Program-made: the position numbers and the translations under genes | Shown: positions 4,501 through 63,652 of the stretch, piece by piece | Layout: each line of letters starts with the position of its first letter | Numbering within the stretch: position 1 is the first letter of the stretch | The notes under the pieces: model-generated | The model's input: only the letters and a program-made list of their open reading frames with translations | Told to the model about the DNA's origin: nothing | The model's database searches: none | Assembly (NCBI GenBank): GCA_964187785.1 | Contig: OZ076414.1 | Coordinates: forward strand, 46,686,001-46,750,000 | Origin: Amphiscolops sp. MND2022 | Taxonomy: Eukaryota | Length of the DNA: 64,000 nucleotides | Direction: 5' to 3'

Positions 4501-4980
4501 ACATCATAACGGCGCCCAAAGAAGTCAACCTACAATCAACAGACGTCGCAGACGAAGAACAACTCATTTTCCTACCAGACGAAGAAGAGGAATCAGAACA
4601 ACAAATTTTTGCAAGAAAAGCGCTTATTAATAACCAGCAAAGGACGAAAGAGAACAACAAAACCTATCTACCGAAGTAACAGAAATAGTTCATATACCGC
4701 TCAATACGGCTGTCTATGCATTTGGAGCCATCAAAGAAAATGCACGCATACGCAGCGAAGAAGATGCGGACCCGGTTTTAAAGGCACTAAAATTACGTCT
4801 ACTACATGAAGAATATGACAAACACCTTAAAACTGAACCAAGGGGACGAAACCTATTACGTCATGAAGAGAGAATAATAGTCAAAGACGGAGTCCTCATG
4901 CGCAAATACTACGGTGAAGATGCCACAGTCACACATCACCAATTTCTAATACCGAAACATATAGTACCAGAATTACTATC

Positions 4981-6166
4981 AAGACGGGAACGGCCCGAGT
5001 CGGCGCCATATCTAAGGCTCAAAAACAGCAAAAGGACTTCAAAGTGTCAAAGTATTTTCTTCTACGGTACCGGAAAACCCAGAAGTTGAACCAAATTGGC
5101 GCACCAGAGGAGACACTTTGATCTTTTTAATCCATTCAATGGCAAATCATCAAAAAAATTGAAATAGGGGCACTTTTGGTGAAATTTTTTTTCTGAAAAA
5201 AAGCTTCACAATGCCGAAAAACTAAAAGGGGGACCCTTTGGGATTTTTCAACATCCGTTCTGTCAGAAAACTACCAAAAAATTGAAGGGAGGACCCTCTG
5301 GGGAAGTTTTTTTTGGAAAAAAAGTCTCACAGAGCCGAAAATACTCAAAGGGAGTACCCTTTGGTTCCTTTGAGTTTCTTAGATGATGTAATATTACTAC
5401 TTCGCAAGCTTTTGCGCCAGTATTTTAAATTTGATAATAAGAATTGTAAAATTTTAGGATTGTAAGAATTGTAAGAAAAGTGGACCGATCAGTGTGAGGA
5501 TTGTAGTCTGAAGAAGAAACAAGCCGGGAACGGCCCAAGCCGGCGCCATATCTAAGGCTCAAAAACAGTGAAAAGACTTCCAAGTATTCTCTTCTACGGT
5601 ACCGCAGAAACCCAAAAGTTGAACCGAATTGGCACACCAGAGGCGACACGTTGAAATTTTTTATCCATTCTGTCGCAAATCATCAAAAAAAATTGAAGGT
5701 GGGGCACTTTTGGTGAAAAAATTTTTTTTTAAAAGTCTCACAATGCCAAAAAAACTGAAGGGGGGACCCTTTGGGATTTTTCAACATCCGTTCTGTCGGA
5801 AAACTCCAAAAAACTTGAAGGGGGACCCTTCGGGAAAAAAAAATTTCGAAAGAAAGTCTCACAGAGCCGAAACTACTCTAAGTTCCTTTGGTCTTTTTGA
5901 GTTTCTTAGATGATGTAAAAATACTACTTCGCAACTTTTTAAAGTATTTTATTTAAATTTGTTAAGTAAGCATTGTAAGATTTTAAGATTGTAAGAATTG
6001 TAAGAAAAGTGGACCGATCAGGGTGAGGATTGTAGTCTGAAGAAAAAAAAGGTCACTGCTATAGTCGGGCTTTTTTCCTTAAAAGGAAAACGAAAACGCG
6101 CCGACTAAAAACAGTCATTGCTATTGTCGGGCATTTTTCCTTTAATGGGAAAGCGCCGACTAAAAA
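4981..6166 (-). mobile_element. Helentron/HINE-like non-autonomous element, head-to-tail dimer of a 540-bp unit, inserted in E1 integrase
   Basis: Units start at 4981 and 5521. Inverted pair AGTCGGCGC (4998-5006) / GCGCCGACT (6153-6161), terminal A/T run, no TSD. Pol reads VPELLS on the left and KMNKHLGIT on the right. Confidence 0.72.
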
Positions 6167-13842: not shown

Positions 13843-13998
13843 TACCTAATCTTAATACGTACGGAGCGCTTACGGAGCAAATTGTAAAGTGATGAAATCA
13901 TACCTAATCTTAATACGTACGGAGCACTTACGGACCAAATTGTAAAGCGTTGTAATTATCCCTAATCTTAATACGTACGGCGTGCTTGCGGAGCGGGG
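13843..13998 (+). repeat. 58-bp tandem repeat (~2.7 copies) abutting the E1 3' LTR
   Basis: TACCTAATCTTAATACGTACGG units start at 13843, 13901 and 13959 (TCCCTAATC variant in the third). Confidence 0.92.
13990..13998 (+). promoter_or_regulatory. Polypurine tract of E1
   Basis: GGAGCGGGG immediately before TGTAATGA, the LTR start. Confidence 0.7.
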
Positions 13999-15277
13999 TG
14001 TAATGATTGAGATTACTCTAGTTCATGATAGTATATTCTAAAATGCATGAAACCATTACGGAATAAATTGATTTTTTGGAATAAGGGACTTTTTGTACCG
14101 AATATTTCCCCGTCATATTGGAAATGATTAAAACAGTCTTGCTGCAGGTTAAGACAAGGAAAATGGTTTAGTAAGTGCATTGTGATCAAATTAGAAAGGT
14201 GCTCTTTTTCTACCTTCAGAAAAGATGTTTTGGCCTTTGTTACTTTTTTATGTTGTGACTAAATAATCTAATCTTTATGATCTTTGTACATGTAAAGTTA
14301 ATTTAGATTAGCATTACGTAATCGAGCTGGAAAATTCAACCGTTAATCTGTACTCATCATTTTCTGGCATCGTTTGCTCCTTCCATAATGTAATTCGAAT
14401 ATTTTCAGTACGTTCGTTTAAAATTCTCCGTGATATCTTCGGAGTTATTTTTGCTTGTCATTCTTTTACCGCGAAAATCCGCTTAGTCCTGCGCTGAATC
14501 ATTGTTCACGCCAGCGTGCTTTCTTCGTAAGAAATCTAACTAGATTTTTATTTTGCCGCCTTTTCGTGATTAAACCGGAAATGAAATTGTTGAACAAAAA
14601 TGATTTCAACAAAAGCTCCGTGAAGGAGTCGCGACTAGGATTTTTTAGTCGTAAAATAATGGCCGAAAGACTGAAATAATAAGGATGATTGAGTATTTTA
14701 TTTGAACAAAACCGATTTTTAAGATTTCTAGGAATTTGTAGGCGATGAACAAATGATGCCAGGAAGGTATATATATGTGTTCAAGGTTTTGTAAAAGATT
14801 CAATTCAGTTTCGGTTGTGATAATACTTCGTTTGAAAAAACTTACTTTTCTTTGAAGAATTCCAAGTTTTCAAAGAAATTTTCTTTCTTCCTAAAATGAT
14901 TACTAGAAGCCAGAAAAAGAAAGCTGTAGAAGAATTAGTTTCTGCTGAGATTGAAACTCCTCTATCTGGAAATGGTCAAAATATAAACCCCGTAGCGGGG
15001 ACGAGCAAGTCTCCTGAGTTACATACCGAAAACCTGGAAGAAATGAAATCCACAGTTAGAAGTGAGATGATGTCTGATCTCACCAAAATCTTAGCTGAAA
15101 ACCAAAAAGGAATGTTGAAACTGATTGCCCCTGTAACTAAAAAACAGTCTGCATTATTTGTCCCTGAGGAAATTGATTCTGAGTCCGGAAACGTTCCGAC
15201 AGCTGCGACTTCGACACCTATCAAAACTGGAAATACTGTGACTTATCATAAAACAGCTCCGGTGAACAGTCGTAACA
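13999..15277 (+). repeat. E1 3' LTR (~1.28 kb), containing the Gag N-terminal ORF from 14896
   Basis: TGT...ACA termini; last ~520 bp match 1-517; MITRSQKKKAVEELVSAE... is intact in this copy. Confidence 0.85.
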
Positions 15278-18713: not shown

Positions 18714-21500
18714 AATAATAATACTACTACTACTAGAAGACTTAATTCCCTTTTTATATAAAGGAACATTCAAGCAGTTGTAATGTAGGCTTTTACAAAC
18801 TGAGTTGATCAAATCTAAGAGCGGCAGATGCTACAGAGACATTTTATAAACCAGGAGCAGCTACGGTCTAAATTGAACATTGGGACTTGATTGCGTAGGT
18901 ATGCCATGAGTTCATGTTTAAATTTTTCAGTTGGGTCAAAAATGTCAATCTCTTTTGTGGCCAGGAAGTTGGAGTAGTCACAGACTCTTTGGAAGAAGGA
19001 GTCTCTCGTGGAGAATTTGCGACATCTTTTGACTGGCAGGAGTTGTTGGTATTTGGAACTTCTGAGATCCTTGCATCGTTTGCTGAAACAGGTGAAGGTG
19101 CTGAGATTTAGGTCGTATTTGTTATTTATGGCCTTGTTGAGGAAGACCATGTCATTTAGGACCAAATAGAATGATAGGGGTAGGGTATTTGACGCTGCCA
19201 GCTGCCCTGTATAATTTTGTAAACCAGTTACCCAAAAAAGACATTCTTTATTGAATAGTTCCAACTTCCGTCGGTAATTAATGGAGGGGTACCATATTTG
19301 GGATCCGTATAGTATAATACTCTGAACACACAACCTGTAGTACGTAAGCTTCGTGGAAGAACTAACACTATGAGGAACTGAGCGCTTCAAGAAATGATAA
19401 GCTTTTCTAGCAGCCACCAATTTCTTTTGAATATGGTTGTCCCATGTAATATTGTTTGAAATGGTGATTCCAAGGTCTTTAATTGAGTCAACGGTGGGGA
19501 CAATATTACCGTTCAGAAACAGAGGATCCGACGACGCAAATTTTTCCTCGAAAGTGATTGACTTGCACTCGTCAATGTTATATTCCATTTTGTTCCTGTA
19601 AGCCCATTCAGTAAAGTGATCAATATCCCTTTGTAAATCAGGTTTGGTCAGGAGAAACAGTAATTTACTATCATCTGCAAGCAAATAGCATGAGGAATTG
19701 ACAATTTTGTCAGGAAGATCATTCATAAAAATAATGAAGCAAAGAGGTCCGAGGACACTGCCTTGAGGTACACCGCTATTAATATCCACCATCTGGGAGA
19801 GGGAGCCATTTATTGAAACTCGTTGTGACCTTGAGTATAAGTAAGACTTGAATAAGATCAAAAAATCTTCATCAAAGCTAAAATTTGCCAGTTTTTTCAG
19901 AAGAATATGATGTGGAACTAAATCGAAAGCCTTCCGAAAGTCGAAGTAGATAGCATAACTAGAAGCGTTAATATCTTTTTGGTTGTACAAATCGTCTAGA
20001 TAGGGTAAGAGCTGGGTAATAGGAGAGCGCTTCTTTGTGAAACCATGTTGTTCATCACAGATTGATAATCGCACATGCGGGTATATGTGTCGGAAGAGCA
20101 ATTTTTTAAGAATAAGTGAGAGCTGTGGTAAAATGCTGATGGGCCGATAATTTTCCACACTTTCGGGGTTTCCAGACTTATATATCGGTGTTATATATGA
20201 GCATTTCCATTCACTTGGCCATCTTCTTGCCTTTATTACTACAGTAAAAAGTTGAGTGGCCAGCGGAGCCAGAATATCTGGGCATGAGTTCAGCAAAAAA
20301 GTAGGAATAGGATCTGAGCTCAATGAACAAGTTTTAGCTTTCGAGAGTAAATCTGTGACTTCAGAGGGATTGATGGTAAAATCTTCCAAACGGATTGTAG
20401 GTAGTTCAGGTGGTTGCAAAGGTATATCTAAACTTTTCTGGAAGACAGAGCTGAAATAACTATTGAACAGATTAGCAATTTCGTTACTGGTGTTTGCTTT
20501 CAGTGTGTTCCAGTTCATTTGATTTGGCAAGCGATTCGAAGAGAAAGAGCGTAAAAACTTGAAGCAAGAACGAGTGGAGACAGGAGATAGATTTTCAAGG
20601 AGGACTGTTTTGTCTAATTCAACTGACAAACTAATCTCTTGTTTTAACCTTTCAATGGTACCATTTCTGTAGTTACATTTTTAGCTGTACGAAGTTTGTT
20701 GATCAGGTGAATTGAGTGGGAGGTATAGAAATACGGATACTGTGATCGGCGAGAAGTTTTGATTTTGCAAGACATATTTAGAGCGTACAACACTGTTTGT
20801 TGCCACAATGAAAAATATTCTTCCATAGGAACATCACTGAAGCTGCAATTTGGTAGTGCCAGTAGTGTGTCGAAAACATTGGATAAATGAGAGTTGAACA
20901 GAGTACTAGAAAAAGATGACAAAGAATACATAATTGATGTATTAGTAGCTGGCTCTGAATAGGGGATAGGAAGGTTCAGCAAAGCAAAAACAGGGTAATG
21001 ATCAGAGTAGAGATGGGAGTCAACATAAACATTGAATAGCTCGGAATGTGAGGTTAGAATTATATCCAGAGTGCTACCAGACTTATGAGTAGGCTCAAAA
21101 ACTAAAGGATTGAGATTCATCGCTTGAGATTGAACTAAGAAGCTTTTGGAATAGTCGCTCTGACCAGTTACAGTTGCCCAGCAAACATCATTCAGATTGA
21201 GGTCTCCTAAAATGGAGAAAGAGCTGAGATAATTGATTTCAAACTTAGCATAACACGAGGAGATCCAATCAGCCAAAATCCAATCAGCATTCCTCAACAA
21301 TAGACAGAAAGTTACGAACCACTGACATTGTTTTTTGAATCAGTCGAAACATGATAGCTTCAATATTTATCTAATATTTATCTAAAATGTGTTTTTGCTC
21401 TTTGTAGTCGTTGAGAAGCTGAGTCACAAGGAAACAAGGATGGGAGATTTCAACTCCTAGTACTAATCAACAAACGTTTAATTACTTAAAACCGTTTTTT
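18714..21500 (-). mobile_element. CR1/L2-type LINE, 5'-truncated, relatively young
   Basis: APE remnant (GDLNL, TLDIILT, SDHYPV) plus a 604-aa RT ORF, short 3' UTR and (TAG)n(TAT)n tail at 18714-18735. Confidence 0.9.
18815..20629 (-). CDS. LINE ORF2 reverse transcriptase portion (604 aa, uninterrupted)
   Basis: NYRPISIL, QHGF, FDFRKAFDLV, SGVPQGSVLGP, LADD, KDLGI motifs. The endonuclease half (20644-21300) is in another frame. Confidence 0.88.
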   Translation of the reverse strand: MSVELDKTVLLENLSPVSTRSCFKFLRSFSSNRLPNQMNWNTLKANTSNEIANLFNSYFSSVFQKSLDIPLQPPELPTIRLEDFTINPSEVTDLLSKAKTCSLSSDPIPTFLLNSCPDILAPLATQLFTVVIKARRWPSEWKCSYITPIYKSGNPESVENYRPISILPQLSLILKKLLFRHIYPHVRLSICDEQHGFTKKRSPITQLLPYLDDLYNQKDINASSYAIYFDFRKAFDLVPHHILLKKLANFSFDEDFLILFKSYLYSRSQRVSINGSLSQMVDINSGVPQGSVLGPLCFIIFMNDLPDKIVNSSCYLLADDSKLLFLLTKPDLQRDIDHFTEWAYRNKMEYNIDECKSITFEEKFASSDPLFLNGNIVPTVDSIKDLGITISNNITWDNHIQKKLVAARKAYHFLKRSVPHSVSSSTKLTYYRLCVQSIILYGSQIWYPSINYRRKLELFNKECLFWVTGLQNYTGQLAASNTLPLSFYLVLNDMVFLNKAINNKYDLNLSTFTCFSKRCKDLRSSKYQQLLPVKRCRKFSTRDSFFQRVCDYSNFLATKEIDIFDPTEKFKHELMAYLRNQVPMFNLDRSCSWFIKCLCSICRS

Positions 21501-27595: not shown

Positions 27596-29199
27596 AATTT
27601 TGCGGTGCCAGTCTGTTCAGAAATTGGACTATTCAGACAGAGCTCTGTGGTCTGGCGAAAAAAATACACTGTAATAGTACGGCACATTTTCTTGTAAAAT
27701 GCCTCTACTAAAAACAACTGCGAACAACGTTGACTTCTTACAAAGTTCATTAATTCACGGTTCATTACAAACATGCGAGCTTTTACTATAGTTGAGAAAC
27801 GAATGTAGAGAATTAAAGCACCTGAAAAGTTAGACATGTATACCATTATATCTTTTCACTTCCCGTTTCGAAAGGTGCAAAGAAGGTATGTCTGAACTGA
27901 AAATATTTGTCTGAATGTCTTGATGCCGACATTCAAATTTAATTACTCTTGATTTTTAGCACCAATGCAAATAGCACCTCAGAAAGGCCGCATTTTGGGC
28001 TCCCAAGCTTATATCATGAAATACGAGCCGGGTTTTCCAGAATTGATAAATATGTTAGCTGAAATATTTTGGACATGAAAGTTCACTCTTCAATCCGGAC
28101 CGTAATAATGCATGCGACTGTGGCTACCTTTATGAGTCATTTAATTTATACATACAAACAGTTTTGCCGTCTCCAACTTGAAACTTGATCATAACGGCGC
28201 AATTATTTGTGTCAAAAGTACCTCTAATCATCGACGAACGATCTAAAAATAACAAGTTCTATCTTAGAAAGTCAGCTTGCAATTATCCTGTCTTGTGGCT
28301 GTTTTGGTTAAATTATGCAATCTTACATAATAGGCTGAGCTCTACGGGGGAATCATAATCGTCGGTTAAGACCTGTCTAAGTTGGCTTCTAGTTTTGGTA
28401 GTTTCGATGGTATCATACGCCTTCTGTTGGTGGTAGCTCTTTCAGCTTCAGCTGTCGTTTTATTTCTCTTCTAACAGTGGACGCCAAACAGCGAAGAATG
28501 GCATTGTTATGAGCGACAACTTTAGTCTCAAGAATAATATTAAAGCTCTTTTAGGCTCCACATATCCTTTATATGTTGAATCACATATCCATTCAATGTT
28601 TGCAAATGCGTCGCCAAAATAATGTTTTATTCATTCTATCTGTTTGGTTGTTTTCACACTTAAATGAACGGTTTTATGCCTCGACCGCAAAACTGAACTC
28701 CAATTCCCGCCAAAACTGGTTTGTTTTCACACATTTGTGAATGAGACATAGTTACGTAAAGGGCAATGTTTGGATGTTTCTGGGCTGGAACGCCCGATGT
28801 TTTGAACTCTCAAAGTGACCAATCAAAGATCATGAAGAATTCAAATAAAATAAGCTTTCAACAAGCCGGCCCAGTTAGACAAAACAACCCCCCATTTATA
28901 GGCATTGCGTTCGTTTGATGATTGCAGTCACAACCTATTTCTCTGTTGACTTCGAGATGATATTCTGCCCGAATCAATTCATGGAAATCATGCAATTTCA
29001 AAGCTGAAAAGTGCAGCGTAAATTGTGCCTCTCGTGAATCTCCATTTGTCCCTGATATTGAAAGCTCCGAAGATGAAGTTTTGGCACCATAGATTAAACA
29101 ATACTAACATCGGGGCCAGGTAAGTATCCCCGAGCCATTACCGGTTGCATAGCAGGCGGAACATACAATATGGAGGTTAGCTATACATTTAGCTCAGAA

Positions 29200-30400
29200 T
29201 TTAGTACGTCTCTACCGTTCTCTTCCCTACTGTTAGTTAGTTTATCAGTAAGGGCTCTCACTATACTTGTGAGTTCTCCAATTTGACGGTTCATTTCCAG
29301 GAAACGTTATTCAATCCTGTGTTTCTCATGATCCCTTTCTATAGATCTCACGTCACTTTCGATATCATTGTTGAAATTGTCTTCAGTGTAGTGATCCGCT
29401 ACACTCGTATTGTTGTCTTCATCAGAATATCTATCTATTCCAGACTGCTCAATTCTGCTCTCTCTATTGCATCTCGATCGAGTATTTACCATTGTTGAAA
29501 AGGTTAAGGTTTAAGTAAATTGAATTGAAAGAAGTGATTTTAATGTAGTGAAACTTTGCAAAGTGCTTTTACAGTACGTCTGTATCTCACGGTAACAATA
29601 TCCTTCTGTCGAATTTTTATATTGCAATAGCTCCTTCAAACTCTTAATCACTTGTTAATTGCACTTGATTGTTTTGCGTCTCTTTCACTCAAACTTTTTG
29701 GTTAACCTGCTATTATCACCTCATGGTACATTACACGACTGGTCACTTCAGTCGCCGCTAATTGCCATTGTTGCGTTTGAGTTTCTGTTGCCGCACCAGC
29801 ATGTATCATTGATCTCACAACATCACAGCACGTACTAATTTACAACTAGTGATCGAAATGTTGGGCATAATTACTGTACTTGATTACTGGTAGTATTTTC
29901 CCAATTAGCAATTTCAACGCACTAAGCACAAATGACGACTAGTGTTCGAAGTCGTTGTTAGTAATTTTTACTAAACACAAACTCAAGTGACTGTATATGA
30001 ATAAACGATGCTCTAGTAACTGGACTATCAATGATTTGGATACGAAGAACTGCATGTACAAATCGGTTAAAATACGACTAGATATGCCAGTCGTTTACAT
30101 GAATGAATAATGTATTGCACTAAAGGGTTGATAAAGTCGACTACATGTTCTAGTCGTTACTGTGAATCAGGTTAGGGGAAACATCTTTCTGTATTTTACA
30201 AAGGATGAGATCAAAGTTCACTGGAGATTTCTGTTTTAATTGTTTTGGTTTGTGGTTGGGACGACTAATAGTATTGGTCGTTGCTTAGCACAATTTTGTA
30301 TTTCGTAGCGCAGGTGAAATTGGAGTGACGACTGAACGGTAGAGTCGTCCGTTATATGAATTACCATGTATTTTAAAATGTTTATAGTTGAAATGTTTGG
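29200..30400 (-). mobile_element. LTR-like segment with Gag-like N-terminal ORF (probable solo or truncated LTR; boundaries uncertain)
   Basis: AACAATGG start of MVNTRSRCNRE... at 29492, continuing past a stop as RFLEMNRQIGELTSIVRAL. Same M..TRS start and upstream dyad as the E1 LTR. Confidence 0.5.
29735..30348. promoter_or_regulatory. Array of six ACGACT-N9-AGTCGT dyads
   Basis: Copies start at 29735, 29935, 30074, 30137, 30261 and 30328. Each has at most one mismatch and an exact 9-nt unrelated spacer. Confidence 0.8.
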
Positions 30401-31579
30401 GCAATTTGTGATGACTTCATCTTTCAGTTGTTGTATTTCATACCATCCGGTATGAGAATTTAGTCCTTTTTAATTTCTGGAGCTATGAATGCGGACCTAG
30501 CTATGACAAAGTCTTACCCATTCGTTATCGTCTGTAATTAAGATCTAAGGGCCATTTGTGCTTAGAAAGCTGAAAAATTACTAAAGACTAGCTTCAAGCG
30601 TATAAGACGTTCATTTTTGTGGGACCAGAAATATAGTATTCAAATGAACTATAGAACGGTTGTTGATCAGAATGTTGAGTGAATAGTGAATTCCCTGATA
30701 GGAAATTCACACACATTTTGCAAGAACCTGGGTGAACCTTCGTCAAAGATCTTGGTTTTTAATGCATTATTCTGCAGGTATTTCGTGAGATCGTGGTAAT
30801 CTTTGACTGGTTTTGAAAAAATCTTGGTAAATTGTGCTACAGTAGAATCCTAGTTTTGAACACTGAGCATCTTCTCTTTGACTTAAAACGAAACTTCGCT
30901 GAGAACTTCAGTCACTGGTACTCAACTACTCTTGGTGCTCTCAAGTTTCTTTCCAAAGTTTTCACGAAAAAAAGTCAAGAATTCCGAGATTAGCCACGAC
31001 TTAACAAAGCTTTGCCCAACACCTGACAGAATGATGAGACAAACTGGGGACAAGGAATAGTCGGAGATTCGAAGATTCGTGCCGACAAAGTTGCGCGGAA
31101 ACGGTTGTCGAGAGGTGTACACCGGAATACACCTGAACTACCTTCTACACCTGAACTACAAATATGGTTTGCCTTTTTTAAAAAGTATGTTAGTGCCTTT
31201 TTTATTGAAGACCTCAAATGGAAAAACTATCCCTACCGGAAGGAATCGATATGCAAATACACGCTTCAATTACTATAGACCTAACCAATATGCACATCAA
31301 AGTTACAATTATATGAGGAACTTTTTGCTTACTTGGTTCAGTAGTTTTTTTGGTTTGTAGATTTGATTCCATTTAACTACATGTTTAGCCAAAAGTTCAC
31401 GGTGATGACTGTTTGCTTTCTACATTTGGTAATGAATGTCTTTGATGACGTCACGTTTCTTAATCCTGTTAATATTCAAACTGATGGGTTTTTTATACCA
31501 ACTATTTACTTTTACTCTGAGATCTGGGATGTTAAAATAATCCCTAGACATTTGACCATTTACAAATATCTGATTCAAT

Positions 31580-34190
31580 ACTACTCTGAAAAGTCGACAC
31601 TTTTGAAATTATTCCACATGAATTGTCAAAGTCTCCTAAAGAAAACACCTGTTCTGCAGCATAGGATGAATGATCTCGGTGCTAATACAATCTCCGCTTT
31701 TTCTGAAACATGACTAAAAGAAAATGATGACGAAAAAGTATGGCAGCTCAATGAAAAACTCTTCAAAACGTTCCGCTGTGATCGGAAATCTAACGAAAAA
31801 CAACAAGGATGTGGCGTGATGATTATCGCTCCTAAACACCTAAACCCAATATTGGAAAACGATCTGAATAAATTGAACCCGAACCATTTTGAAAGCCTAT
31901 GTTTTGAATGCAACTTAAACACTGACCATTCCAACAAGAAGGAACTCTTAATCGACGTAAGTTATAACCATAACGGTCTCAGAACACTGAATACAAATAT
32001 ACCTACCAGAGTTAAAGACGACTTCCAAACATTGATTGACTACATCATGACTCACCTAAACAATTCCGAAAAATTTAGTAACATCATATCCGATACACCA
32101 CTTGGAACACAGAAAAACAAACCAATTGATCATTTTGCACCAACCATCATAATGGATATCAAAACCAAAAGACGCACAAATGTTACTATCGAAGAAATTT
32201 TTGATAAAATATACTATTCAAAAGAATTTTCCCAACATACAGTTGTTTATAGCGATTGTGGTATCTTTTACAATCAAACTTGTGCAGGAGGAATGTTCAC
32301 AGTTTTTGTAAATAAAATTGAGACAGCCTTGAAAAAGGGTTTTCCAAAGAAGAAAGTCTTCATTCGAATTGATAAAAGTGATATAGCAATTCATTCAAGT
32401 GGAAAAACAAACCTCGTAAACTTTGTCTTGAAATGAACAAACGAATGAAACCAACAGACGATAGATATGAGGTATTTTAACGGAATTATTTAGAACAATT
32501 AAACCATGACCGAATAAGGAGCTCAACATACCGAAACCTCTGGGTCCGTGCAACATCCCTGCTTTGGCTCTGAAGGACTGTTCAAATATCCTCGCCGAAC
32601 CTCTATGCTTCTTTTTCAATGCTTTCATCACTGAAGGAATTTTTCCTGAGCACTTGAAACGAGCTCATTTTACTCCCATTTTCAAAAAAAAGGTAACTCA
32701 GAAGACCCCAATAAATACAGACCGATTTCGATTACTTGTGCACTATCGAAGATCTTTGAAAAAGTTTTGAAGGAGCAAATACATCAATTCTTAGAAAAAC
32801 ACAACCTTTTAAGTCCTTCACAGTTTGGTTCCCGGGAAAAATTTTCAACAACTGATGCATTATTATGTGCTACTGAACACATACGAAACGACATAGACTC
32901 AAATAAGTTTGTCTCTGCTGCTTTCATTGATCTCTCCAAGGCATTTGACTCCATGTGTCATGAAATTCTAATAGAGAAATTGAAATGTACGAATTTCGGT
33001 GATAAAGCCATCAATGATAAAATCATATCTACAAAATTGGATACAAAAGGTCATCCTTCCATCTTGTTCTTCTGACTGGACAAAATTATACCAGGGTGTA
33101 CCACAAGGCACTATAATGGGTCCGCTTCTATTTAACATTTATGTTAACTTTATGAGATCCTCTGAACATAGACCAACACAGCTTGTACAGTATGCTGACG
33201 CTACCTTTTTCTATTCAGCAAATGGAATATTGGAACAATCCATAAAAGATCTTGAAACCAATATAGAAAACGTGATACATTTCTTTGAAAGACACCGCCT
33301 CAACATGAACGCCCACAAAACAGAGTTTATGATCTTTTGTAAGAAGTCACATAATCATATAGCTGATCATCGTCAATTGAAAGTGAAAAATGATTGATTG
33401 AACAATCCAAATTTGCAAAATTTTTAGGCGTTTACCTAAACCAAAACTTGACATACCAAATGGAAGTGCAAAACATCCTCCGTAAAATGGCTACAGGTAT
33501 AAAAGCCTTGTGTTCTATCCGGAACATCCTACCTGAAAAAACACGTCTTCTACTGCTGAATTCACGAGTTCTAATTCATCTCCATTACTCTTCTATTTTG
33601 ATAAATGGTATTATGCAGAATCTTCGGTTACCTTTAGAGAAACAATTAAGCTGTGCGGTGAAAGCTTGCTTTCACAAGAAGAAATATGAACAACTCAAGT
33701 TACAATACGAAATTTTACCTGTGGGTCTTTTTTGGACTTAAAGCTGTTCTTTATTTCTGGAAACATCAAAATGATTTATTACCGGCCTTCAAACATCAAG
33801 AAATAACAACTGCAAAAATTAAGATACTCAAAAGGTCAAATCTTTTGGTTTATGATTCAATGACTACTCGACAAACAGCTTTATCAAAAAAATTGTTCCC
33901 TTTTGGAACAACCTTCCTCCTGAATTAAAAACAAAAAAAATGGACATATGATGCTATCAAAACTAAATTCAAAGACTTTTTCCAAGACAAATCTAAACAT
34001 CAAACTGACACACATCAGAATTCGACAAGAAAGTTGGACGAACTACCGATTTCTTTGCTTTCATTTTAAATTATAATTCATTATTTCAGTGTAAGTTATT
34101 ATATATTTTTTAATTTGAACTTGTACACTGCCTTTTATAAGGAAAGCATTATTTTCTCTTATATGAAGGAAATTTAGTGTTTTTTAGGTG
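31580..34190 (+). mobile_element. CR1/L2-type LINE ORF2 remnant (APE + RT, frameshifted, internal deletion)
   Basis: HMNCQSL, FSET, RCDR...GCGV, LIDYI, IDH; YRPISI, SQFG, IDLSKAFD, QGVPQGTIMGPLLF, QYADAT. Confidence 0.88.
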
Positions 34191-50011: not shown

Positions 50012-51150
50012 TGTGATGTCCCTCACTCTGGATTAAGCTTTCAGCTTCACAATTCCTGGAAGTCGAGGCTGTGTTCTCGAATAAGATTTCGCTTGCTCCG
50101 GTATCCAGGTTATCTGGATTTTCATCAGATAAGGAATCTATCTTGAAAGAAAGATTTTCTACCATCTTCAATTTTCTCTCTGTTTGGTCTCAGTTTCCGT
50201 AAGCCTTCTACAAACGGACTTTTCAACTCTTTTAGAAACTTCAGAGAAATCCCTATCAGGTATACTGGGCGCGTTTTCCGTCCTCAGACGTGCAGCTTCT
50301 GGCTCTTCGAACGAGCTTGCAGGGGAATCTCTCCTTGCTTTCCTTTTCAAAACCTTTTCTGGCAATTTGAGTGAATTAGAAAAGAAACAACAATTGTTTT
50401 GCAACGTTACTATTATTTCAACTGAACAAACTTAGCTCCTTCATCGTATTTATATTTATCACCAGCAAAATTGAGGGAACCAGGCAAACAATGTGTTTAG
50501 CAAGGAATCAGAGTAAAGAAACTTTCTGAGCTGAGGCTGCGCGTCAGGCCGGCGTCCCGCTTCATTCATTCGAGGCCGGCCTCCAGGCCGCGGTACTGTA
50601 ATTCTTTTCCTGGGGCTGTTCGCCAGGCCGTTTGTTACTGTTTATATATTACCGGATTAAATACTATCAAAGGCGCGGTGGTTTCACGTTGGTTACTGTA
50701 CAGTACATATGTACTTTTATTGGTATACACATATTATTATGAATGTCTATTTACTTTGTATTCTAGCGGCAAAATTTAGGTTGTTATTGAGATTGTATGT
50801 CAGTTGTGTTTGGCGTTGTTCTTCTGATTGTTCTTTCTTTCTATTTCCCGCTTTCTTCTAAGTAGACTGGGTACTTATTGCTGCCGAACTCAGAGCTCAT
50901 CTGGGGCTGTGACAGTCCCTGGCTTCTTCGCCAAGTTCCTTCGGGGAGAACAAATTGGGAAATTGATCGGATAGGTGTTTCGAAAAGAGTCGGGAGATCG
51001 TCACGCATCGAATAGTAGGTGCGCCATGTACAGTCGCTTTGCCAGCTACTGCCTGGCCTGTACCCTTCTGAACTGCTACTTGCGCTAATTGTGCTCACAA
51101 AGACGTCATCTGGAAAAACAGGATCGTCTGTAGTAAACAATTTTATCACA
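50012..51150 (-). repeat. E2 3' LTR (~1.14 kb)
   Basis: Termini TGTGAT...ATCACA form a perfect 6-bp inverted repeat. A purine-rich tract GAAAAAAAAACGAACAAGG precedes it on the - strand (51151-51170). Its outer boundary cannot be confirmed from the second copy. Confidence 0.7.
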
Positions 51151-60484: not shown

Positions 60485-61872
60485 GGCTCGGTAGCTTGTT
60501 GTGCCATGGTTTGTGGCTGCTGAGTGATTTGCGGACGTTGAAGAGTTTCTTTTGCGATTTGGTGAGGGATGTTGTTGGATCCTGTTGATTTTGGTATTTT
60601 CTACCACCTAGGGCGAGTTGCTTTAATTGCTCCAGAGTAGCAGTCTTTGGTTTCGTGGCTCATTTTGCCACATGTTTCCACAGGGTTTGTTTGTGTTGGG
60701 GATTTTTTGGGTTTTTTTGTCTCTATTCGTTTTCCCATCGTTACGGAGGAGATGGCCTGGGTGGCCGCAGCCAAAACATTTTTGGGTGGCCTGTGATTTT
60801 TGGTATTCATTCCTGGTCTGTGTTAGTTGTGGGTTCCCCATTATGGATGCCTGTGAATGGTGTGGACTCCGGGTTGGCTAATCCGTTGAGCTCCATTTTT
60901 TTCTAGGTGCTGCACCATCGTTTCGTATGATGCCGTTGCGAGGCGGGCTTTGTTCAGTACTCGTTTTAGGTGGACAAGCCTTTTTGCATAGAAGGATGTC
61001 TCGATGAATTTAAATGCATCGTCCGCATATGCTTGCGCTATTTTCTGGTAGAGCTCCAGAAAATCTTGGAAAGTTTGGCTTGTTGGGTCAAAGGTAAGGT
61101 TCTCCCACTTGCATTTGGCGGTGGCTACTCATTGTGTATTGACGTCTCTCCTGCGAAACCCTGCGATAAAATCAATAAGTTTAGATTTGGTGGCTTCATC
61201 ATATTACGGAATGTCTGTAAGGCGTCTCCTCGCAATAGAGAATGGAAATAGTGGATTTTTTCCTGCTCTGTTATGTGAGGATGGACGTTTAGGCTCGTTT
61301 GGAAAAGATCTTTAAAGAGTTTAAACTTTTCAGTTTTCACATCGAAATTTGGCATCGTTGTTGCTAGGGCTTTCGGTAGTCGAGGCAGGCTTGTGTTTTG
61401 CTTGTTTGCAGCATATAGAAATTCCAATAATTTGTCAATTATCTCATCAGAGTCCTTGAAGATCGGGGATGGGAATTATTATTGGAAGTCGGTTCACTGA
61501 TGACTTCTGTCTTCACGTGAAGTCCCTCACTCTGGGTTAAGCTTTCAGCATCACAATTTCTGGAAGTCGAGGCTGTGTTCTCGAATTGGAATTAGCTTGC
61601 TCCGGTATCCAGGTTATATCGATTTTTATCAGATAAGGAATCTATCTTGGAAGAAAGATTTTCTATCATCTTCAATATTTCTCTTTGATTGGGTCTCAGT
61701 TTCCCTAGGCCTTCTACAAACGGACTTGTCAACTTTTTTCAGAAATTTCAGAGAAATTCCTATGAGATATACTGGGCGCGTTTTCTGTCCTTAGACGTGC
61801 AGCTTCTGGCTCTTCCACTGAGCTTACAGGCGAATCTCTCCTTGCTTTCCTTTTCGAAGCCTTCACTGGCAT
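60485..61872 (-). pseudogene. gag: E2 gag, starting inside the 5' LTR
   Basis: MPVKASKRKARR start at 61872; FDVKTEKFKLFKDLF...IHYFHSLLRGDALQ; CFGCGHPGHLLRN and ETCGKMSHETKDC knuckles. Confidence 0.88.
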
Positions 61873-63355
61873 TTTGACTTTTGGGCTTTGGTCAGTCTGC
61901 TGGTTTTCTTCAGTATCTTCCAGTGAAAAATAAGAGACAATTTGGAGATTTCCAAGATTTTTTTGACTGGAATTAGAAGTGAAACAACAAATGTTTTGCA
62001 AACTTAGCTCCTTCACCGTATTTATACTTATCACCAGCAAACTTGAGGGAACCAGGCAGACAACCTTCACGCTTCGTTCAGTCCTGCGTCCATCCAAAGC
62101 AGGGAAACCGGAAGTTCAGTTCAGCTTTGTCGAATTGAGACTCTCAGTTTGTTCATAGTTTCCGGTAAAGAAAGCGTCAACTTCGTGTCTGAGTTGCGAC
62201 TCCGCTTCCCTTCGGCTCCAATTCCCGCCTTTCCAAGACGCCGAAGCTGAATTCAGCAATGAAAAGAGGAAATTAGTCAACAACAGTGCCTAAAGGACAG
62301 ATAAACGGAACAAAACATTGACACTCGAATTGTGGAAAATAGATCTTGTGGAAAATACTGCGCAAAAGGAATGATGGTGTGAAATACAACAGTATATTGG
62401 TCTTTAAATTCACTCACAGAACATTGGTAGCGTAATTTGATTGCAAGATAAAAATCCCAGACCAAGGCCATAGTTCAAGATTTTCAAAAGTTCATACAGA
62501 GTTTACATGAAAACATGGTTAAGCAACAGCAACTGGTATATTACGTGGAAGTATATCGCATTAAAAAAACTGTTTAGCACATTGGCTAGCTTCTTTGGCT
62601 AGTAGATCAACCAGGGCAAATCTGACAACACGTTAATATTCATTGAGTTACATTGAGGAAAAGAACCTCGGGCCCAGACCACTGGCTGGGACGTTTAATT
62701 GAAAAACATTTATTTGACAGAATTGTATTGCAAATTACACGTAATCAATTGTAGCCGCTTCATTGACAGCAATCTTGGAAAATGTTTCCATTAACTGTAT
62801 GATTTCAGACTTTATTAGCGCAATCCATATTTCTAACAGATTTCACTATCCCTTTGGCCTGGGACACGTCCCGGGTCAAATTACTTGTTAATCATAATTT
62901 TAAAACATTTTCAGCTTTAATCACTCATTACATGTATTGCATCATTCTAAGCCATCGTTTTAATTTCTCAAGTTTATATGTACGAAGCATTAACTTGTTT
63001 AGCATTGAATTAGAGTGAACAAATATTCTGAGCTGAGGCCGCGCGTCAGGTCGGCGTCCCGCTCCATTCATTTGAGGTCAGCTGCCACGCCGCGGTGCTG
63101 TAATTCTATTTCTGGGGTCGTTCGCCAGGCCGTGAGTTACTATTTTTATATTACCGGATTAAATACTATCTACTGCGCGGTGGTTTCACGTTGGTTATTG
63201 TACAGTACATATGTGTTTGTATTAGTATACATATATTATTATGAATCTCTATTTGATTATTCTAGCGCCATTAATTTAAGTTGTTAATGAGATTGTATGT
63301 CAGTTGATTTTGGCGTTGTCTCTTCGATTGTTCTTTCTTTCCACTTGCCGCTTTC
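61516..63355 (-). repeat. E2 5' LTR, interrupted by a ~930-bp insertion and truncated by a HINE-like copy
   Basis: 61516-62064 and 62995-63355 align with the 3' LTR; homology stops where the HINE-like sequence begins. Confidence 0.85.
62065..62991. mobile_element. Unclassified insertion in the E2 5' LTR
   Basis: Absent from the 3' LTR; AAC on both flanks; weak subterminal inverted repeat GCTTCGT/ACGAAGC. Confidence 0.6.
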
Positions 63356-63652
63356 TTTTAAAAAACCAGAAGGGTCCCCTCTTCATCGTTTTTGAGCGCT
63401 GTGAGTTTTTTTCGAAAAGTTTTCTGATCCAATGGACTGATGAGTTTTCGCAAAGATTGTGGAAAAGATCTACGGTTTTTTGACGTTTCAACTTAGCGAA
63501 AAGCGGTGTTCGAGTCTTAATCGTATCCCTTCCGGTATTTTTCGGCACTGGTAAACTTCCGACAAAAGTGGCCCTTGCTTATTTTTGTATGCTCCAAAAA
63601 ATTTACTCTTTTGATCTTTCAGCGGGGCGTCGGGTTGGTCCAGTCCCGGCCT
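63356..63652 (+). mobile_element. 5'-truncated, diverged HINE-like copy
   Basis: AAGGGTCCCC subrepeat and 3' end GGCGTCGGGTTGGTCCAGTCCCGGCC, resembling GGCGCCGACTTGGGCCGTTCCCGGC. Confidence 0.6.

Follow-up and report, generated by a model that had tools for sequence, protein, structure and literature searches.

A dyad array inside a solo LTR

The window (the entire 64,000-nucleotide stretch that was analysed) contains a solo LTR of about 1.27 kb at 29192-30457 on the minus strand. Its ends are slightly decayed, and end comparison identified the target-site duplication ATTTA on its left (29187-29191, plus strand) and on its right (30458-30462, plus strand); duplications of 5 bp also flank most of the full elements examined. 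Over its whole length this LTR is 92-93% identical to both LTRs of each of two full elements (L033/L034 and L039/L040). Six ACGACT-N9-AGTCGT dyads were found in it at 29735-30348 (614 bp), three of them perfect and three with one mismatch. The sequence-only reading had proposed these six dyads with gaps of 63-200 bp, and all of them were recovered where it placed them, with at most one mismatch each. The dyads, which have no strand, are located at 29735-29755 (dyad 1, gag-proximal, one mismatch), 29935-29955 (dyad 2, perfect), 30074-30094 (dyad 3, perfect), 30137-30157 (dyad 4, one mismatch), 30261-30281 (dyad 5, one mismatch) and 30328-30348 (dyad 6, perfect), with start-to-start gaps of 200, 139, 63, 124 and 67 bp. 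Most of the N-type LTRs that were checked, and several of the SS type, have a dyad at an LTR position similar to that of dyad 1 (types defined below). The decayed seventh copy suspected near 29842 has four mismatches in 12 positions; the real seventh dyad is at 30411-30431, 26 bp from the 5' end of the LTR, with two mismatches to ACGACT, and is found in sister LTRs too.

Comparison of the 701-bp array stretch with the 1.07-Gb genome revealed 61 matches, many of them same-direction pairs 14-15 kb apart. By the features tested, the element that bears the array is a 14-15 kb Ty3/Gypsy retrotransposon, which supplies the LTR association that the sequence-only reading had wished to see examined. 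The full elements have direct LTRs with TGTCA...TGACA ends, a primer-binding site (TGGTGACAGGAG, after the 5' LTR) and a polypurine tract, and Pfam analysis of a full relative (L031/L032) found gag followed by PR-RT-RH-IN on the minus strand of the window; no env was identified among the ORFs scanned in that relative. The first 100 codons of gag lie inside the LTR (29193-29492, minus strand), with one stop in the window copy, and are continuous with the gag ORF of full elements. Gag thus begins about 300 bp inside the LTR, which places the primer-binding site of full elements within gag. The Gag-like ATG that had been placed downstream of the array is at 29492 on the minus strand, and the dyads therefore lie 243-940 bp upstream of the gag start on that strand. 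A pattern scan alone gave candidate TATA-like (29621-29616) and ATTAAA (29544-29539) signals on the minus strand (29539-29621), which weakly suggest that all dyads may belong to U3.

The window also contains other repeats. Direct repeats 14.8 kb apart (6-515 and 14765-15275) and 11.5-12.5 kb apart (50013-50861 and 61517-63361), with gag, reverse transcriptase or integrase remnants between the members of each pair, represent older LTR elements; ACAACT-N9-AGTCGT-like sites occur in the first pair at 493 and 15253. LINE-like remnants are present at 18815-21339 (minus strand, reverse transcriptase and endonuclease match) and 31714-33741 (plus strand, with reverse transcriptase). A 58-bp tandem repeat of 2.6 copies lies at 13843-13994, and a block of about 530 bp occurs in duplicate at 4980-6048.

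Analysis of spacing showed that a length of nine is particular to these sites. Among spacers of 0-20 scanned in the array region, only spacer 9 yields sites at one mismatch or fewer, and the whole window has 10 dyads with up to two mismatches against a shuffle mean of 1.77 (at least 10 in 0 of 100 shuffles). Genome-wide, exact ACGACT/AGTCGT sites number 1046 with N9 (reversed control 103), 106 with N8 and 71 with N10, so that the proposed fixed spacer is enriched 10-15-fold over its neighbours. The N8 and N10 matches listed mostly repeat one spacer: ACGACT-CTAACCGG-AGTCGT is a separate repeat family whose copies often form pairs with a distance of about 3.3 kb, and another family, with ACGACT-GAAAATGTAA-AGTCGT, is clustered. 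The spacers had been called unrelated, and together with their flanks they show a mean identity of 13.95/49 over 21 pairs against a background of 13.2, with a maximum of 18 against a background 99.5th percentile of 21. Half-sites are better conserved than the spacers and the remaining LTR in all 10 alignable LTR pairs, a count that leaves aside two unalignable cross-class pairs.

Tandem and direct repeat finders reported nothing at the array, and Rfam gave a single weak, irrelevant match. A CRISPR array and a tandem repeat, both discounted by the sequence-only reading, can be rejected since the gaps are irregular (63-200 bp) and the flanks are unrelated without decayed tandem copies. The two observations named beforehand as counting against selected sites were N9 without enrichment and flanks in tandem decay; neither was found, which supports the selected-site reading. 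With half-sites conserved and N9 enriched, putative selected sites for a dimeric protein, lying in an LTR, are the best reading of these sequences. Retention of CpG fared differently as a sign of selection. The window has a CpG observed/expected ratio of 0.90, and in comparisons of paired LTRs transitions are equally frequent at CpG (39 of 1121 sites) and at other C/G sites (163 of 4710); neither CpG depletion nor hypermutability was found in the window or the paired LTRs, and the argument from CpG is rejected because CpG sites mutate like other C/G sites.

A neutral relic of local duplication, spread by transposition, might leave such an array, and some LTRs (L045, L047) do have a dyad duplicated inside a 94-bp repeat, while site runs spaced by 84 bp occur in L087 and L093/L094. 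This explanation is already largely refuted and retains next to no probability, as the dyads of the window have unrelated flanks and spacers and the motif persists both between LTR groups that can no longer be aligned and across lineages in which synonymous sites of the accessory gene described below are saturated. The array is a real, selected, operator-like structure that most likely serves a protein of the element itself.

The antisense accessory gene

Full relatives have an extra gene in antisense orientation, with several exons, between pol and the 3' LTR. A total of 142 scored genome matches to this gene were obtained, with 41-100% identity and most without stops. Purifying selection is evident from pN values of 0.06-0.41 against saturated pS values of 0.60-0.88. 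Exons bounded by GT-AG in L079, L083 and L164 suggest that the gene is spliced, and it may be expressed.

The first large exon encodes a conserved C-x2-C-x16-H-x5-H finger. Pfam zf-BED, the most commonly matched family, matched 5 of 10 and 9 of 43 first-exon members, with a best E of 0.006 that is below the cut-off, and the first-exon profile matched the C2H2 finger of a hAT locus of the same genome (E 6.5e-4 among 780 ORFs). The last exon was modelled with a pLDDT of 77 from 71 sequences and 38 from 11 sequences. When the model was searched against 48,161 chains, the Hermes hAT transposase (8edg) ranked first, with Z 5.0, rmsd 6.9 and 154 aligned residues at 371-602, compared with at most 88 aligned in the other rows listed; a Z of 5.0 is within background for helical models. 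Foldseek against PDB and viral libraries gave nothing at E 0.001, PDB sequence searches gave no match, and ESM Atlas gave leads under 0.9 or none. Pfam matched neither exon 2 nor exon 3, and HMM and HH profiles of these two exons had no significant match among the hAT ORFs of the same genome. Taken as a prediction from profiles and models, the accessory protein may have a BED fold and hAT ancestry, the latter weakly indicated.

Several identities for the protein were rejected. The catalytic Glu of the S-x-x-x-E-R-x-F-S motif, present in hAT ORFs of the same genome, was not seen when the last exons of 10 accessory proteins were inspected by eye, and an active hAT transposase was therefore dismissed. 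Membership in the Retand TRP28 group was dismissed because no PF04195 Transposase_28 match occurred in element ORFs or accessory exons, and membership in the VANC group because the carrier is a Gypsy and not a Mutator-like element and the protein is BED-like.

The search of metagenome contigs returned 261 pattern matches, none of them confirmed. P0131, P0148 and P0154 are more distant homologues; their matches to this genome reach just 21-35%, and they thus probably come from other genomes. A repeated family of loci (L196/L238/L239, L240/L241, L244/L245 and L093/L094) has the accessory gene with no pol in the stretches fetched; it shows open last-exon frames of 454-477 codons, only a gag fragment and AYGACT sites, often with an inverted, truncated second accessory gene, and represents derivatives that lost pol and kept the putative regulator. 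L079 and L095 have LTRs that are about 84% identical, and their accessory genes differ at 62-68% of synonymous sites, which suggests either exchange of a cassette or strong constraint on the LTR.

Co-variation of the finger helix and the LTR motif

Of 118 loci scanned, the finger helix could be read in 59, and an LTR could be delimited at 40 of these; the class counts cover the 40 and leave out the 19 others. Each of the 24 LTRs in the x-N helix class has 3-7 AYGACT-N9 dyads, against a shuffle mean of 0.01, and none of the 16 LTRs in the S-S class has any, where one degraded copy assigned to x-N reads Q-I and two assigned to S-S read L-S. Two N-type loci among these 19, without nearby sites (L085, L196), have no recognisable adjacent LTR, and AYGACT sites occur elsewhere in them. 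All 16 S-S LTRs have instead 4-7 AYGWDG-N9 dyads (shuffle 0.3; N8 and N10 0-1 each), a motif scored on the same LTRs from which it was derived, and such dyads are absent from 23 of 24 N-class LTRs. This degenerate motif was missed by a de novo dyad search of single LTRs and was found by pooling LTRs. The outer AYG and the 21-bp span are common to both classes and the inner triplet differs. AYG-N15-CRT peaks in both classes (96 against 30 shuffled and 116 against 21), with side peaks at N12 and N18 (54 and 45). Genome-wide, ATGTGG-N9-CCACAT occurs 233 times, compared with 30 for N10 and 17 for the control.

When classes were set from DNA alone for 28 copies, only three positions of the 30-residue finger were diagnostic, at -5, -4 and +4 relative to the first zinc-binding His; eight more class-diagnostic columns occur downstream of the finger. 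In the accessible text on the Hermes transposase, S66 and N67 at His-5 and His-4 make base-specific contacts (PMC10368747), and the diagnostic residues at -5 and -4 correspond to these base-reading residues. Selection of elements by DNA site alone agreed with the classes. Seven elements were picked by ACGACT, and 6 of 6 readable helices were N-type; ten places were picked by ATGTGG, and 4 of 4 readable helices lacked N, with three of the ten places having no element genes. The helix was unreadable at seven further ACGACT-picked loci. One element resembling an N-type lineage (L234) has a perfect ATGTGG dyad inside its last exon.

A recombinant lineage (L164/L165 and L170/L171) groups by gag and integrase with QN elements (support 96 and 99), and L164 and L170 have an SS-type accessory gene and SS-type sites; the motif in this lineage follows the accessory gene and not gag-pol. 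The U3 of L164 shows short matches only to SS-type LTRs. As U3 also adjoins the gene, linkage alone could move both, and U3 and the accessory gene probably moved together in the recombinant. The accessory-gene tree, a quick exon-3 tree covering 49 of the 59 loci, requires the helix class to change just once, and the co-variation therefore amounts to a single evolutionary event. An element-encoded protein whose change accompanies that of the motif was found in this one event. Class-specific sites also occur internally: three SS elements have 11-15 of them in the half that contains the accessory gene (0-5 for N8/N10), three QN elements have four each, and HN elements, in which one site lies 8 bp from an LTR end, have only 0-2 per half.

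The single switch on the tree and the linkage of the gene to U3 would also be expected if dimeric host factors bind the dyads and the SS clade switched host factor, the change in the finger being coincidental or linked. Host factors are commonly recruited by LTRs. We regard this explanation as quite improbable, as two different host factors would have to share the AYG outer triplet and the exact 9-bp spacing, and the two base-reading positions of an otherwise near-invariant finger would have to have changed by chance. Furthermore, of six additional ACGACT loci that were checked, five showed features of this same clade (its LTR ends, its gag or similarity to its LTR), with the sixth left unassigned.

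Perfect dyads can also fold, and the sites might form hairpins in the transcript of the element, each with a 6-bp stem and a 9-nt loop, that serve its export, packaging or strand transfer; C2H2 fingers of the H-x5-H form can bind RNA. Pairing is in slight excess at a few positions (permutation P 0.01-0.07, with sites that are not independent). Against hairpins, stem positions 4 and 5 are Watson-Crick in only 35 and 27 of 78 distinct SS sites (permuted 31 and 21). Among 120 dyads with two mismatches, a single one is compensatory, and mismatches read as G-U favour the antisense strand in 17 cases, the sense strand in 7 and neither in 15. As the stems of SS sites are mostly unpaired, a main role as RNA hairpins was rejected and is given very little weight. 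The dyads are likely docking sites of the accessory protein, since in sister elements whose predicted DNA-reading helix has changed the palindrome is a different one and its spacing is the same.

A putative operator circuit and its known counterparts

Overall, our analysis suggests, with a probability of about 60%, that the dyads are putative operators of the antisense zinc-finger protein of the element, a protein of predicted hAT descent that would bind them in pairs and activate or de-silence the promoter. The spliced antisense gene would give a nuclear protein that keeps the hAT finger and self-association and loses transposase catalysis. Two fingers would read AYG-ACT half-sites 9 bp apart, and arrays of dyads in U3 would provide avidity and class specificity. 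The protein would then act in trans on all LTRs of its class, among them the solo LTR of the window, and would activate or de-silence cognate LTRs. Activation is favoured over repression solely by analogy with VANC and TnpA. The lack of CpG decay gives no support to a VANC-like DNA demethylation step, and any silencing that is countered is probably not CpG methylation.

The same finger protein could bind the dyads without activating, either repressing the LTR as a control of copy number or, in the manner of hAT transposases at subterminal repeats, organising the integrated element or the cDNA. All the evidence for binding sites fits this equally well, as do sites in both LTRs and along the interior, the terminal site of HN elements and the architectural role of the Hermes BED domains in the accessible account (PMC10368747). 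We nevertheless consider it unlikely. The sites cluster in a promoter-like manner in the presumed U3 upstream of gag, where the promoter position is itself presumptive, and also near the start of the accessory gene; moreover, transposon-encoded binders of motif arrays in the consulted portions of the literature are activators or anti-silencers (PMC5735166; 10.64898/2026.08.24.746577).

The operator reading with activation has a close parallel in VANC of the Arabidopsis VANDALs. According to the available text, this transposon-encoded protein of Mutator-like elements acts on dense arrays of short motifs in the non-coding DNA of the element; protein and motif both changed between families, and site number grows by tandem duplication (PMC5735166). 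The VANDAL motifs are 8-9 bp long and lie in the same orientation within tandem repeats, and VANC action is loss of DNA methylation (PMC5735166). The element described here likewise encodes a protein with a motif array, and the two change together. Unlike VANDALs, which are DNA transposons, the carrier is an LTR retrotransposon with a BED/hAT-like protein; its sites are palindromes with a spacer, their flanks are unrelated, and no CpG decay was found. Site runs in L093 (8696-10000), L094 (1-2300) and L087 (5961-6476) have a period of about 84 bp and represent a VANDAL-like tandem expansion.

In the portion of the source available, TnpA of Spm is a transposase-derived regulator that targets clusters of motifs in cognate copies; losing the catalytic residues is the route from transposase to transcription factor, and such regulators serve their own DNA transposon or the host (10.64898/2026.08.24.746577). 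The words 'retrotransposon' and 'LTR' are absent from its main text as accessible. In contrast to TnpA, a class I element here appears to have captured a class II protein together with a target motif. If binding holds, the accessory protein would work like a VANC or TnpA regulator while belonging to neither VANC nor TRP28.

Two Hermes BED domains bind a quasi-palindrome (PMC10368747, in its accessible part). The accessory protein resembles them in having a single finger per chain, with Asn at His-4, and in the paired binding with strict phasing proposed here, and the AGT core is common to Hermes AAGT and the N-type site. Hermes differs as an active transposase that acts on its own ends with 4-bp motifs, whereas here 6-bp half-sites stand 9 bp apart in an LTR.

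Retand TRP28 and Grande gene23 are antisense additional ORFs of plant Gypsy elements, situated between pol and the 3' LTR, which are conserved, predicted to bind DNA and proposed as regulators, without a named target sequence in the accessible text, where HTLV antisense genes are also mentioned (PMC11963269; PMC7264820). The accessory gene is similarly antisense, in the same place and predicted to bind DNA; its domain is different, and the plant system is specific to plants. Foamy-virus Tas and HTLV Tax/HBZ are retroviral transactivators that act on U3 response elements. The putative element-encoded factor and its U3 sites are similar in arrangement, although the proteins are unrelated, the retroviral ones have no transposase origin and the element here is a Gypsy retrotransposon. 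In the literature searched, mostly papers open to all readers, no description of an accessory gene with its own operator in an LTR retrotransposon was found, and the accessible part of PMC13547354 describes no such LTR system.

The candidate protein and candidate operator constitute a matched pair in two specificities. At slightly better than even odds in our estimate, a Gypsy lineage captured and disarmed a hAT transposase and rebuilt its LTR as an operator array, forming a private transactivator or anti-silencing circuit, and sub-lineages escaped cross-talk by re-coding two finger residues and a dozen or more sites. If this is true, one transposon class made the enzyme of another its transcription factor, and the principle of VANC and TnpA reaches retrotransposons. 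Two BED-finger residues would set the inner three bases of the site, giving a natural read-out of the BED recognition code. More than 1000 regulated sites would be scattered over the host genome, and these exact sites, many of them in solo LTRs, would constitute a transposon-controlled regulatory layer.
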